A stretch of 64,000 bases of DNA from positions 14,006 to 78,005 of the forward strand of contig JAPDJY010000053.1 of the NCBI GenBank assembly GCA_029258835.1, given 5' to 3'. The DNA is from Thermoproteota archaeon (GTDB lineage: Archaea; Asgardarchaeota; Jordiarchaeia; Jordiarchaeales; Freyrarchaeaceae). The notes under the pieces were generated by a model that was not told the origin of the DNA, made no database searches, and saw nothing but the letters and a program-made list of their open reading frames with translations. This document shows, in pieces, positions 11,417-37,522 of the stretch. The position numbers were made by a program, and so were the translations under genes. Numbering within the stretch: position 1 is the first letter of the stretch; each line of letters begins with the position of its first letter.

Positions 11417-12931
11417 TTATGGCATTGACAGCCTACCTGGGTGCATGATGAAGTTCGGGTCAATAACCTCTCTAAACCGCCTTAAGAGGTCATAGTATGC
11501 CTTAGCCCTAGCAAACGTTAGCGGGGCATGCACGTACGGGTCAGGCCTATAGTTCAGCCACCCTTTATCGAGGAATATCTCCGTAGTGACGCGGTTCACC
11601 TCCTGCACACGACGCACATCCTCAGGATCAGTATAATCGAAGCATACGATAGGCATACAAATTGCCTGGCGGCAGTGGTCAATGCTGGCTATCCACATAA
11701 CCGGAGGGAAACCATACTCCTCCAGCTTCTGATTGTAAATCTCCGCGAATTCCGCACAGTTCTTCCATGGGGTATACCAGGTAATGAACAGGAATCCGGC
11801 GTTCCATAGCGAGTATGGGATGGCGATCTTGTTTGGTTTGCGGAGCCTGCTTTGGATTTGCTTGGGGTGTAGCTTCCACTCCTTTATTTCGTGGCCTGTT
11901 TTCGCGTTGTATTCTTTGGCTAGTTCATGTATCTTGTTAACTGTGAAGTCGAGTTCTTCTTTGCTGTGGCACCAGATCTCGAAGTTCATCCACCATCGGG
12001 GGATGCCGAGTTTCTTGTAGAACTCGTAGTCTGTTGGGACTTTCTCCTTAGGCCATCGGGTCATGACAAGGGGCCAGTTTCCTCCCTGCACCATTACGAG
12101 GTGGTCTGCTATGCCTAGCTCGTACTTTGACACTTCTAGGGTGAAGTCTTGCATGTCGTATGGGTTGTCCATTCCATATGCAATTATTGTCTTGTGGTGT
12201 GGGTGGGGGACTATTTTTATTGCGAGCTTGGTGATGACGCCCATTGTGCCTTGGGCTCCTAGGAAGAGGCCGTCGAAGTTTGGTCCTAACCCCCACCTGT
12301 AGAATGGCTTTGCTCCGGGTAGAGACCAGCTTCCGGTTCTGACTATTTCGCCTGTTGGGAGTACGATTTCCATGCCTAGTACCATGTCTGCCTGTGGGCC
12401 ATACCTTGCTGTGACCATGCTGAATCCTCTTTCGAGGGCGTCGCCGACCACGGTTGCGGCTGGCGGTGCACCGTCGGGAACCGGGGGAGCCCAGTCTGGG
12501 TAGTATTCTTCAGGGCAACTGAGGGATATCCTCTATGTTGCCTTTCTGAAGTATGCCCAGACTTTGCCGCTTCTTACCCCCGGCTCCAGTACGGCGTATC
12601 TTGCGTCGGTGTTGACTTCTATTATGCGGTCCATTCGTGATAGGTCTAGTAGGATTCCTCCTGGCTGTACTAGGGGGGTTGCGTATCCGCCGCTTAGTCC
12701 TCCTGCGCATGGGGTTACGGGTATGTGGTTTTCATTTGCTAGGATCAGAATTTTTCTCACTTCTTCGACGTATCTGGGTCTCACGACTACTTCTGGTACT
12801 GTTGCTTCAAGCCCCATTATCCCTCTTGAGAGGTAACTGTACCGCATCGCGATGTCTGACGAGACGAACTCTTTCCCTACTATGCTTTCCAGCATCTTTA
12901 CGATGTCAGGTGTAACTTCATTATAACTCAC
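11417..12931 (-). CDS. FAD-binding oxidoreductase (GlcD/D-lactate dehydrogenase-like), interrupted by a 36-nt BHB intron; 492 aa spliced
   Basis: ORF-track halves 12533-12931 and 11417-12451 are in one frame, separated by a TAG inside the insert; PEVVVRP, GGILLDLSRM, GAQGTMGVITKL, DPNFIMHPG motifs. Confidence 0.88.
12508..12543 (-). other. BHB-type intron in mRNA (36 nt)
   Basis: central helix UCAG/CUGA, bulges AA^A and AG^A, inner stems GGCAAC/GUUGCC and GAGG/CCUC, distal exon helix AGUCUGGG/CCCAGACU; splicing gives ..YFRKYYPDW.. Confidence 0.8.
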
Positions 12932-13256
12932 AGGCTACTCCTCCAGGGGTTTTTCCATGCTGGTGAAATTTCAATTGAACATTTTACCTTCTATATTTAA
13001 AGTTGTTGTTTTGATTTCCCGCTTCCCGAATCTTCATGTGGATGCTTAATTAACTCGGAGATGGAGCCATTAAAGTTTCGACTTTAAAAATCGTCTAAGG
13101 ATGTATGAGGGTGTATTTTAAAAAAGATAAAAAATTTGGGGGTCTGAGTCCGGTTATCGCTAGCTTTCCATTTAACTATTTATTTTAGCCTTTTAAAAGT
13201 TGTGAAGGGTTCTGCTTGTTTTAGGGGGGGTTGCGGTTTGTTTTGCGTGTTGGGGG

Positions 13257-14684
13257 TTAGTCGCTTATGCCTGCGAGGCGTTTTACTATCTGCTTTTTCT
13301 CTTCAACATCGTAGGTTGCCATTATTGCTATTTCCTCCATTACAGGGGATCCTCCTCCGTGGACGTCTGCGACCGCCATTACTCCCCCAAGGGCTGAGCA
13401 GAGCATATCCGAGAGCAGTCTGAAGCACCTGTGGATGTTTTCCGGCGGGACTTCGGCTCTTCTAGATATGTACTTTTCCAGCAGGGGGCCTGTTTCAGGG
13501 TTTAGGAAGTCTTCCTCGTATGGTAGGGTTGCTGGAAGGCCTCCTGATAGGTCTGTTAGGATTTCTATGGCTGCGTGTGCATTTAGACCAGCGTGCCTTC
13601 TGCCAACGTTAGCGTATACGACGTTTGGCACGCAGGTTCCCGACCCGTACGTTTGCGACTTTACCGCCGAGGCGATTCCCGCCGCGTAGACTAGTTCGCT
13701 TAAGCTGACTAATTGGGCAAGCTTCGACCTCACGTGAGGCTTGTTCTCCACACCGTTGTAGTCCGACACTAAGGCGGCTGCCCCCATTATTATGTCGAAC
13801 AGTGCAGGCTTACAGCCTGTGTAGCTGTGCCTGTGGAAAAGGGCGAAAAGGTGTGCTAGCAACCCTGCAAACTGCCATTCTCCGCACAGGAAGACACGTT
13901 CCCAGGGGACGAAGACGTCGTCGAATACCACAAACGAGTCGGCTGCTCCAACTTCAGCCAGGGGGGCCTTAAACTTTTTCCTCGGTCTAAACGACGTTGC
14001 ACGGGTGACTAGTTTTACGCCTTCAGTATCCGCGGGTATCGCGAATGAGACTGACCAGTCTCCATCATCCTTAGTCATCATCCTCGTGGGTAATACTATG
14101 AGCTCGTCGGCGTAGGCGGCCATGGTTATGTGGTTCTTCGCCCCCCGAACTATTATTCCGTCATCTGTCTTCTTTACGATCCGCACGTAAAGGTCCGGGT
14201 CTTTCTGCTGGTGGGGGCGTAGGCTTCGGTCACCCTTAACGTCCGTTTGGGCTCCTGCAGCCACAAGGTCGTTTTTCTGGAAGTATTCAAGGTACTTAAG
14301 GAACCTTTTATGGTACTCTGTTCCTAAGGCTTGGTCGACTTCATATGTTATTACCGAGAGGGCGTTTATTGCGTCACATCCCATGCACCTCTGTATGCAC
14401 CCACCGGTCAAGTGGCAAAGCTTCCTTATCATTTCCTGCTTTTTAAGGAGGTCCTCCGGGCTACGATTTATGTGTGTAAACCTGTTTATTTTCTCCCCCG
14501 TGAGATGTGAGGTTGCTACGAGCAGGTCTTTGAATTCGGGGTCGTCAACCAGCTCGAACGTTTTCGATATAACTCTTATCCCGCCTTGGAGGCGGGGGTC
14601 ATCACGCTTAACTTTTTCTCCTCCAATGTAAACGTTCGGCTTCATTTTGTACAAGCTTTCTTGATATTCTTCAGGGGTACGCAT
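13257..14684 (-). CDS. 4-hydroxybutyryl-CoA dehydratase / HpaB-family protein
   Basis: CIQRCMGCD, AQTDVKGDRS, HRHSYTGCK, HGGGSP motifs. Confidence 0.85.
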   Translation of the reverse strand: MRTPEEYQESLYKMKPNVYIGGEKVKRDDPRLQGGIRVISKTFELVDDPEFKDLLVATSHLTGEKINRFTHINRSPEDLLKKQEMIRKLCHLTGGCIQRCMGCDAINALSVITYEVDQALGTEYHKRFLKYLEYFQKNDLVAAGAQTDVKGDRSLRPHQQKDPDLYVRIVKKTDDGIIVRGAKNHITMAAYADELIVLPTRMMTKDDGDWSVSFAIPADTEGVKLVTRATSFRPRKKFKAPLAEVGAADSFVVFDDVFVPWERVFLCGEWQFAGLLAHLFALFHRHSYTGCKPALFDIIMGAAALVSDYNGVENKPHVRSKLAQLVSLSELVYAAGIASAVKSQTYGSGTCVPNVVYANVGRRHAGLNAHAAIEILTDLSGGLPATLPYEEDFLNPETGPLLEKYISRRAEVPPENIHRCFRLLSDMLCSALGGVMAVADVHGGGSPVMEEIAIMATYDVEEKKQIVKRLAGISD

Positions 14685-36857: not shown

Positions 36858-36879
36858 AAAATAGAGAAAGTTGGTGTTT

Positions 36880-37522
36880 CTAGAGAGTAATGTTTAGATA
36901 CTGCATGATTTGAGGCGCCAGGAGTCCGAGAAGGCCTCCTGATTCAGCTTGCCATGAGAAGGTGAGGTAAGCTATCAGCGCTATGCATGCGCCACAGAGC
37001 ACAATGTTAACCGCATGGTTGTCGTAGCGCAGCTTAGCAAGGCGCAGGTCTCGCTCGTGATCCCATAGGAATGCTCTGAGACTTTCCTGCTTCCGGGGGA
37101 GGATGTAAGGCAGCGTCCTCACCCCGGTCGGATTTGCCCCCATCAAGGTTTAGGCTGTCCGCTAGCCAGTGTGAGAAGACTGCTGCGGCTGCGATAGCGA
37201 AGTATTGAGGGACGAAGTAGCCTATCAGGAGTGGCAGCCAGATAAGTGTTAGAATACTGTGGAGCAACCCTGACCTGTGCATTACCCTTTCTCTTTTCAG
37301 AAGCTGATCTAAGTCGGGTATGATTCCGAAGAAGCCGCCCGCGGCAAGTGCTGGGACGGCGCCTGATAGGGCAAGCTGAACCTGCCACGTGGAGCTGTAC
37401 CTTGAAAGATCCATCAGTGTTTGCAGCTGGGAGAGCAGTGAGCCTTTAAGCTCAGGCGATACGAAGGATATCACGAGAGCTGCTGCGGCTGCTCCCAATA
37501 TAATGTGCGTGTACTTCTGCAT
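36880..37522 (-). CDS. membrane metal-dependent hydrolase (YbcI/DUF457-like), interrupted by a 16-nt BHB intron; 208 aa spliced
   Basis: TH, PDLD, HR..LHS, SHWLADSLN-PTGV motif rebuilt across the junction from two overlapping ORFs. Confidence 0.85.
37134..37149 (-). other. BHB-type intron in mRNA (16 nt)
   Basis: central GCCU/GGGC, both bulges AA^A, inner CC-UUGAU-GG, exon pairing CGGA/UCCG. Confidence 0.78.

Follow-up and report, generated by a model that had tools for sequence, protein, structure and literature searches.

Predicted bulge-helix-bulge introns within protein-coding genes of an Asgard archaeon of the order Jordarchaeales

Introduction

Three genes that lie within 26 kb of one another in an archaeal genome, encoding a flavin adenine dinucleotide (FAD)-linked oxidase, an aconitase-family dehydratase large subunit resembling LeuC/HacA and a YdjM-family membrane protein, are each broken by a small insert (36, 29 and 16 nucleotides (nt), respectively), which raises the question of how full-length proteins could be made from them. 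The genes are found in a 64,000-nt stretch (hereafter the window) of contig JAPDJY010000053.1 in assembly GCA_029258835.1 (positions 14,006–78,005). An initial annotation of the window had read the inserts as bulge-helix-bulge (BHB) introns that are removed from mRNA by tRNA-type splicing, in a probable Asgard archaeon. The taxonomic placement holds: the organism belongs to the class Jordarchaeia, and among named genomes Candidatus Jordarchaeum sp. is closest to it (the LeuC proteins are 85% identical). Here we examine the sequence evidence for the three inserts, which points to BHB introns in coding sequence, and for further introns of this kind in the rest of the genome.

Published archaeal mRNA substrates of the splicing endonuclease EndA comprise cbf5, in some Crenarchaeota, and HVO_1309 (PMC2738675, PMC7714728, PMC10485636). 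A review from 2023 considered that more archaeal mRNA substrates “remain to be discovered” (PMC10485636), and in full-text literature searches we came across no description of BHB introns in any further archaeal protein gene or in the mRNAs of Asgard archaea. The genome that hosts the window (G000) is an assembly of 91 contigs with an estimated contamination of 6%. It was compared with four Jordarchaeum genomes of the same family (G001–G004) and with larger genomes of the same order (G005–G010), one of which is closed at 3.6 Mb (G006, the relative used for the LeuC RNA check described below).

Results

The three inserts share one layout, in which the last four bases of exon 1 are followed by a 3-nt bulge, an inner hairpin, four bases complementary to those of the exon and a second 3-nt bulge. 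The resulting 4-bp central helices are UCAG:CUGA in the oxidase, UUGG:CUAA in the LeuC-like gene and GCCU:GGGC in the YdjM gene, the latter two with one G-U pair each. The 5′ bulge is AAA in every case, and the 3′ bulge (AGA, ACU and AAA, in the same order) always begins with A. The helix inside the intron (h′) measures 6, 6 and 2 bp, and the helix formed between the exons (h) 1, 3 and 4 bp, the last being offset by 2 nt. Relaxed BHB motifs are defined as needing at least one flanking helix, h or h′ (PMC5829648), and all three inserts comply with this definition.

Cleavage after the second bulge nucleotide on both strands restores the reading frame in all three genes, whose insert lengths correspond to 0, 2 and 1 modulo 3, and gives the junctions WAYFR-K-YYPDWAPP, HEMLG-M-RIADIY and ADSL-N-PTGVRTLPY, which align to uninterrupted orthologues without gaps. 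The junction peptides predicted from the spliced products are VWAYFRKYYPDWAPPVPDGAPPAATVVGDALER and others that span HEMLGMR and ADSLNPTGVR. The boundaries of the inserts can be set independently by intron-less orthologues, to within a slide of 1–2 bases, and these boundaries coincide with the cut sites in three of three cases. For a fixed site and length, the chance of the structure (a central helix with no more than one G-U pair, plus a 2-bp inner helix) is 1.7e-3, and it falls to 4e-5 when A-rich bulges are added. The sequence and the map of open reading frames (ORFs) bear out the initial annotation on the lengths of the inserts, their 4-bp central helices and 3-nt bulges with AAA on the 5′ side, their short or imperfect exon helices, and the fixed cut that restores frame and family-typical spacing. 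The further claim that the inserts share no sequence also stands, and a genome-wide copy search found no second copy of any of them, for which reason a mobile-element reading was rejected. One 13-nt intron match, at C13:33618-33630, lies outside tRNA genes and is at chance level.

The oxidase gene is encoded on the minus strand. Its first exon (12544–12931; 129 codons plus 1 nt), delimited by orthologue alignment, covers positions 1–80 of Pfam FAD_binding_4, and its second exon (11417–12507) covers positions 93–139 of the same family followed by FAD-oxidase_C. Between them lies the 36-nt insert (12508–12543), with the motif UCAG / AAA / 6-bp stem GGCAAC:GUUGCC / CUGA / AGA and a fold of z = -5.3. 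The two ORFs share one frame and are separated by an in-frame TAG that lies within the insert, such that the unspliced reading ends in ...VWAYFRKAT before the TAG and the frame resumes 84 nt on. The insert is present in five Jordarchaeaceae genomes (36 nt here, and 24, 22, 27 and 29 nt in four Jordarchaeum genomes), among which the inner stem alternates between C:G and U:A. It is missing, exactly to the base, in nine of nine more distant orthologues, of which the sister family accounts for six and other Asgard families for three. These intron-less oxidases read WAYFRK(H/N)YPDWAPP, or WAYMKKKYPGWAPP and similar, and have the length of the spliced product WAYFRKYYPDWAPP. From this distribution, the oxidase intron appears to have arisen in the Jordarchaeaceae.

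The orthologous inserts also bear on the possibility that inserts are kept in the mRNA and handled during translation, whether by read-through or pyrrolysine insertion at TAG, by programmed frameshifting or by ribosomal bypass. Such an explanation would suit the oxidase insert of this genome, which is a multiple of three with a single in-frame TAG, and the arrangement of a hairpin with a stop codon after it recalls bypass signals such as that of phage T4 gene 60. However, the inserts of 22 and 29 nt are not multiples of three, which rules out readings in which the insert is translated, and the stop codon differs by genome, being TAG here and TGA in several others. The extra residues are missing from every intron-less orthologue, and a hop between the AAG codons that flank the oxidase insert would end in the wrong frame. 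Furthermore, the three different remainders modulo 3 would require three different mechanisms. A translational origin of the full-length proteins is, in our assessment, highly improbable.

In the LeuC-like gene, which is encoded on the plus strand, exon 1 (33222–33339; 39 codons plus 1 nt) provides a spliced N-terminus that aligns gap-free with intron-less homologues, and exon 2 (33369–34510) matches positions 91–463 of Pfam Aconitase. The gene halts in exon 1 and picks up one frame over. The intervening 29 nt (33340–33368) form a full hBHBh′ motif (UUGG / AAA / 6-bp inner helix / CUAA / ACU). An insert occupies the identical codon in nine of nine Jordarchaeales orthologues compared, with a length of 29 nt in five Jordarchaeaceae and of 33 or 30 nt in the other family, and with unrelated loop sequences. 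Over these nine introns, 11 pairs belonging to the exon helix, the central helix and the base of the inner helix are paired in 97% of cells, whereas sliding the partner by 1–3 columns leaves 15–36% paired. The central helix is fully paired (100% of cells) in the nine genomes, in the variants UUGG:CUAA, UCGG:CCGA, UCGG:CCGG and UCGG:CUGG, and four pairs are altered on both sides in a compensatory manner (e.g., U:A to C:G and C:G to G:C). LeuC homologues from beyond the order are without the insert and align gap-free with the spliced product across the junction. Judged by its position and distribution, the LeuC intron would be older than the divergence between the two families of Jordarchaeales.

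The YdjM-family gene, on the minus strand, carries the smallest insert, a mini-intron of 16 nt (37134–37149) with a relaxed BHB. Exon 1 (37150–37522; 124 codons plus 1 nt) matches Pfam YdjM positions 1–108, the ORF shifts frame after ...SHWLADSLN, and exon 2 (36880–37133) shares 77–85% identity with the Jordarchaeum orthologues. The motif is GCCU / AAA / 2-bp inner helix / GGGC / AAA, and the offset exon helix is CGGA:UCCG. Eight of eight orthologues are uninterrupted, all reading ...SHWFIDSFNPTGVRTLPY..., so the insert is young, and the intron would be lineage-specific. The exon bases beside the insert differ from those of all orthologues and include a switch of a Ser codon from TCA to AGC, by which the GCCU strand that pairs with GGGC was created.

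A strain variant of the locus was observed on contig L128 (Ga0180301_10002405), which co-occurs with the window and aligns to its positions 30561–45273 (14.7 kb) with 98.9% identity. The YdjM insert is found on two metagenome contigs, in separate assemblies; one of them is L128, where it is one base longer (17 nt, with G6 instead of G5). The two strains differ by 18 indels, of which 15 are intergenic, one is near the 3′ end of a gene and one near the 5′ end of a gene. The remaining one, in the YdjM insert, is the sole indel within a gene body. The spliced ORFs of both YdjM and LeuC are open in L128.

These comparisons allow two further explanations to be weighed. The first is that the inserts arose as errors of sequencing or assembly, the genome being metagenome-assembled. 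In its favour, one could cite the fragmentation and estimated contamination of the assembly, along with the G5/G6 difference in YdjM, which could be a homopolymer error. Against this, the same inserts, with sequence differences, recur in independently assembled genomes of other species, and the YdjM insert is in two separate assemblies. We find an artefact barely credible. The second explanation is that the three genes are pseudogenes, broken by small insertions that form hairpins by accident. It is true that a stop codon or frameshift disrupts every unspliced gene, and the YdjM insert is confined to one lineage. However, the LeuC and oxidase inserts occupy the same site in nine and five genomes with exons that are open and conserved, no second lesion was seen in any copy or strain variant, and all three boundaries fall on BHB cut sites, for which the chance is ~1e-3 per site. 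The ratio of nonsynonymous to synonymous substitution rates (dN/dS) in the downstream exon of YdjM is 0.05–0.09 against the Jordarchaeum orthologues, equal to the values of exon 1 and of the intact orthologues and far from the value near 1 expected of a decaying gene, although the ratios are rough, as dS is saturated; dN, however, is low. Pseudogenes are a very unlikely explanation, and we argue, from this selection on the downstream exon, the length change between strains and the altered exon bases beside the insert, that the YdjM insert is probably an intron and not a fresh frameshift.

The genome encodes the enzymes that splicing of this kind would call for, namely two EndA paralogues and one uninterrupted RtcB, located at C1:78966-80273. 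One EndA gene is in the window (25482–26078, plus strand; start codon approximate) and has both Pfam domains of the enzyme, tRNA_int_endo_N and tRNA_int_endo. Because both EndA domains are present but the catalytic His is replaced by Ala (in alignment with Methanocaldococcus jannaschii EndA), the product is taken as a beta-like, structural subunit. Its paralogue at C1:11942-12514 keeps the Tyr, His and Lys of a catalytic alpha subunit and aligns, end to end and free of gaps, with its Aeropyrum pernix counterpart (E = 4e-46). It also carries the crenarchaeal specific loop (CSL/L1), whose Lys aligns with K44 of A. pernix, the functional lysine of this loop according to the Hirata group. Asgard archaea have been reported to possess an (alpha-beta)2 EndA with the L1 loop that is able to cut relaxed BHB motifs at non-canonical positions (PMC5829648). 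By its predicted subunits, the EndA of this genome is of the (alpha-beta)2 Crenarchaeota/Asgard type, for which broad specificity is predicted.

We propose that each gene would be transcribed together with its insert, after which the last four bases of exon 1 would pair with four bases close to the 3′ end of the insert, leaving an A-rich 3-nt bulge on each strand. The (alpha-beta)2 EndA, assembled from the alpha subunit encoded at C1:11942-12514 and the beta subunit encoded in the window, would then cut each bulge after its second nucleotide. RtcB would join the exons, and the intron would probably be circularised. Only the ligated mRNA would encode the full-length enzyme, since the unspliced products would be ~132, 43 and 162 residues long.

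Introns are present in 92–95% of the tRNA genes of sister groups within this Asgard class (PMC11291895), and tRNA genes of these families have been described as each harbouring upwards of two intervening sequences (bioRxiv 10.64898/2026.10.13.758758). ARAGORN detected only 25 tRNA genes in the whole host genome, 20 of them with an intron; this low count fits the published view, in that many tRNA genes here may be too interrupted for standard tools. A scan of the window for tRNA genes and Rfam families found none.

Beyond the window, the host genome was scanned for BHB motifs whose removal fuses two ORFs. A filter that admitted only motifs of up to 45 nt, with A as the first base of the bulges, 4 bp or more of inner helix and 25 coding codons on either side, left 37 frame-restoring motifs at the canonical cut. 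With the cut displaced by one base, the counts were 20 and 19. The excess over the shifted-cut controls is ~17 in the class that is detectable by this filtered scan. Pfam checks were carried out blind on the ten top-ranked matches outside the window together with ten decoys. One Pfam family continues over the junction in four of the ten canonical matches, namely PCMT (2-59|61-208), PPDK_N (2-113|114-276), AdoHcyase (AdoHcyase|AdoHcyase_NAD) and GatB_N, and in none of the ten decoys, which represent ordinary gene boundaries (e.g., one at which RimK ends and a semialdehyde dehydrogenase begins). Five other top-ranked matches, on contigs C85, C31, C10, C9 and C28, lack such continuity and are either false or unconfirmed.

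The four introns with Pfam continuity are located in genes for a protein-L-isoaspartate methyltransferase (C8: 8772-8796), a GatB/GatE-family protein (C8: 63575-63604), phosphoenolpyruvate (PEP) synthase (19 nt; C1: 87579-87597) and S-adenosylhomocysteine (SAH) hydrolase (23 nt; C4: 24354-24376, minus strand). A fifth of the ten matches, a probable 31-nt intron in dnaG (C1: 127680-127710), is plausible by its motif and not confirmed by Pfam. By direct inspection, further introns were recognized on contig C27 in EF-1alpha (43 nt; 28832-28874, minus strand) and aIF2gamma (30 nt; 26080-26109, minus strand). Both interrupt the same position of the P-loop (GHVDHG|K), with the central helix CGGC:GCCG and the 5′ bulge AAU. 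The EF-1alpha intron is missing in four relatives (G001, G005, G006 and G008), which suggests parallel insertion into the same sequence context as opposed to an ancient shared intron. On the plus strand of the same contig, a 27-nt intron (C27: 11929-11955) falls within the catalytic Asp codon of cbf5 (GTL-D-PKVTG), with the motif CACU / AGA / 8-bp stem / GGUG / AAA, so that the classical crenarchaeal case is also seen in an Asgard genome. In total, seven genes checked beyond the window carry BHB introns (PCMT, GatB_N, PPDK_N, AdoHcyase, EF-1alpha, aIF2gamma and cbf5).

Discussion

Taken together, the three inserts are very probably archaeal BHB introns within coding sequence that are spliced from the mRNA. 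Support for the tRNA-type splicing put forward in the initial annotation comes from intron-less alleles at the exact junctions (nine oxidase and eight YdjM orthologues, and LeuC homologues outside the order), from insert lengths that drift without regard to frame and from helix covariation, and neither of the outcomes that would have spoken against it, relaxed selection on the exons or inserts limited to one assembly, was encountered.

Several observations weigh in the other direction. Folding energy is informative for the oxidase intron alone and weak for the other two. The minimum-energy fold of the LeuC intron holds the inner hairpin only (z = -1.6), with the central helix absent, while that of YdjM reproduces the BHB with a stability equal to that of shuffled sequences (z = 0.1). 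The inner helix of YdjM is just 2 bp, and its insert is known from a single species-level lineage. In the oxidase, the outer helix reaches 6 bp in the minimum-energy fold and absorbs the 3′ bulge; because this bulge can pair, the motif is classified as relaxed HBh′ and not as canonical. A search for RNA runs covering positions 33000-36000 of the window returned none. At the LeuC locus of G006, RNA contigs end ~60 nt short of the junction. Four runs over 20 kb of this locus gave six short contigs, none of them over the intron and none with joints, and one run labelled as a metatranscriptome, which matched 13% of words, was flagged “probably DNA”. Reads across the three junctions were found in no RNA run. 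EF-1alpha of G006, considered as a highly expressed proxy, is without an intron. Archaeal translation can start on nascent RNA, so unspliced transcripts would need some way of escaping ribosomes.

The unfiltered scan for BHB motifs with ORF fusion also counts against the splicing interpretation, as it showed no genome-wide excess over the one-base-shifted cuts, including in variants that considered coding potential or hairpin closure or from which matches containing Shine-Dalgarno sequences had been removed. We attribute this result to chance motifs at ~1,800 operon junctions, which swamp the signal. The excess emerges solely when A-rich bulges are demanded, and the earlier expectation that BHB motifs would be commoner than random is thus upheld with that constraint (37 vs. 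19–20) and fails in its absence.

The initial annotation had also extrapolated from three to four introns among about 60 genes to many more genome-wide. The existence of more introns elsewhere is supported by the excess of ~17 and by the seven genes checked, while the density was probably overstated. With the filters of the scan taken into account, some tens of BHB introns per genome, or ~1% of genes, is a fair estimate. A possible fourth intron in the window was not borne out, as no convincing one was found there. Of two candidates, the one at 50436-50467 proved to be an operon junction, with a complete AdoMet_dc domain beginning just after it, and in the other, at 8660-8678, an off-frame stretch would be fused to an ORF of 923 residues.

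On this evidence, it is likely that gene expression in Jordarchaeales depends, throughout the genome, on the splicing of mRNA by EndA and RtcB as an obligatory step that concerns tens of genes per genome, including EF-1alpha, aIF2gamma, cbf5, dnaG, ppsA and SAH hydrolase, with gain and loss on the timescale of species to families. It could be asked whether splicing is in addition regulated, with the introns acting as real EndA substrates in a control layer like that of HAC1/XBP1, as had initially been suggested, and with splicing tuned to conditions or to EndA/RtcB capacity. Each intron ties protein output to EndA and RtcB, and genes as central as EF-1alpha, aIF2gamma and cbf5 host introns. 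However, the affected genes of the window (an oxidase, an amino-acid biosynthesis enzyme and a membrane protein) have no common function, close relatives manage without the oxidase, YdjM and EF-1alpha introns, and RtcB itself is uninterrupted in this genome. The pattern also mirrors the repeated, apparently neutral gains of tRNA introns in the same classes (bioRxiv 10.64898/2026.10.13.758758). The suggestion of such control therefore finds no support in the unrelated host genes and intron-less relatives, and regulated splicing seems unlikely. The introns are most simply explained by neutral or selfish accumulation in a lineage with a permissive EndA, one that already copes with tRNA genes containing more than two introns, and no dedicated regulatory device need be invoked.

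Among known systems, the closest is the cbf5 intron of Desulfurococcales and Sulfolobales, which is likewise short, often a relaxed BHB within coding sequence, and gained and lost between close relatives (Yokobori et al., 2009, PMC2738675). In comparison, the hosts described here are ordinary metabolic and membrane genes of an Asgard archaeon, with three in 26 kb and some tens per genome, and splicing is predicted from sequence. The mechanism is of the same kind as for cbf5; the novelty lies in how many introns there are, in their ordinary host genes, in their occurrence in an Asgard archaeon and in their visible turnover. In Haloferax volcanii, a BHB in the HVO_1309 mRNA, the second archaeal mRNA substrate to be published, is also cut by the tRNA-splicing endonuclease, but this intron is in the 5′ untranslated region, does not interrupt the reading frame and is processed by a homodimeric enzyme (Schwarz et al., 2020, PMC7714728). 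The tRNA introns of Jordiarchaeia, Freyrarchaeaceae and Atabeyarchaeia belong to the same lineage and presumably the same enzyme, and are similarly small hairpins at unconventional positions with repeated independent gain; their substrate, however, is tRNA, and protein-coding genes are mentioned in neither paper (PMC11291895; bioRxiv 10.64898/2026.10.13.758758). The eukaryotic HAC1/XBP1 system shares non-spliceosomal cleavage at two stem-loops, joining by a tRNA ligase (RtcB in animals) and a change of frame on excision, whereas its nuclease is IRE1 and not EndA/TSEN, and it is a stress-regulated switch in a single mRNA.

Gene callers will report genes of this type as truncated, split or pseudogenes, which distorts metabolic reconstructions of Asgard archaea, and this matters in view of the weight that Asgard genomes carry in arguments on the origin of eukaryotes. 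As the introns are of different ages, it is possible to follow how they are gained and lost in protein genes, and they offer a prokaryotic test case for introns under coupled transcription and translation. If splicing is indeed genome-wide, these would be the first prokaryotes with a truly intron-bearing set of protein-coding genes and a living system in which to study how cells cope with introns when transcription and translation are coupled.

Additional observations

The EndA beta gene belongs to a cluster of three neighbouring RNA-processing genes (22930-26078). The cluster includes, on the minus strand, a CCA-adding enzyme (22930-24351) and, adjoining it, a LigT-type 2′-5′ RNA ligase/cyclic phosphodiesterase (24367-24930). 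A short gene between the LigT-type and EndA genes (24908-25432, minus strand) encodes, by the look of its sequence, a putative hydrogenase maturation protease.

Two of the decoys used in the Pfam checks, L146 (contig C18 of the host genome, 1167-1808) and L139 (C22:1541-2050), have downstream pieces that start in the middle of a domain, at SWI2_SNF2 position 95 and NUDIX position 45, respectively. They may be further split genes that are cut one base off the canonical rule. The ORF-fusion scan also caught a repeated stretch on contig C2 of the host genome, at ~156-162 kb in plus-strand coordinates (the matches being located at about 1.8-7.2 kb of the minus strand), with the repeat unit ...AAGAGTCCCCAGACATGGGGATTGAAAG and a period of ~75 nt, which looks like a clustered regularly interspaced short palindromic repeats (CRISPR) array.

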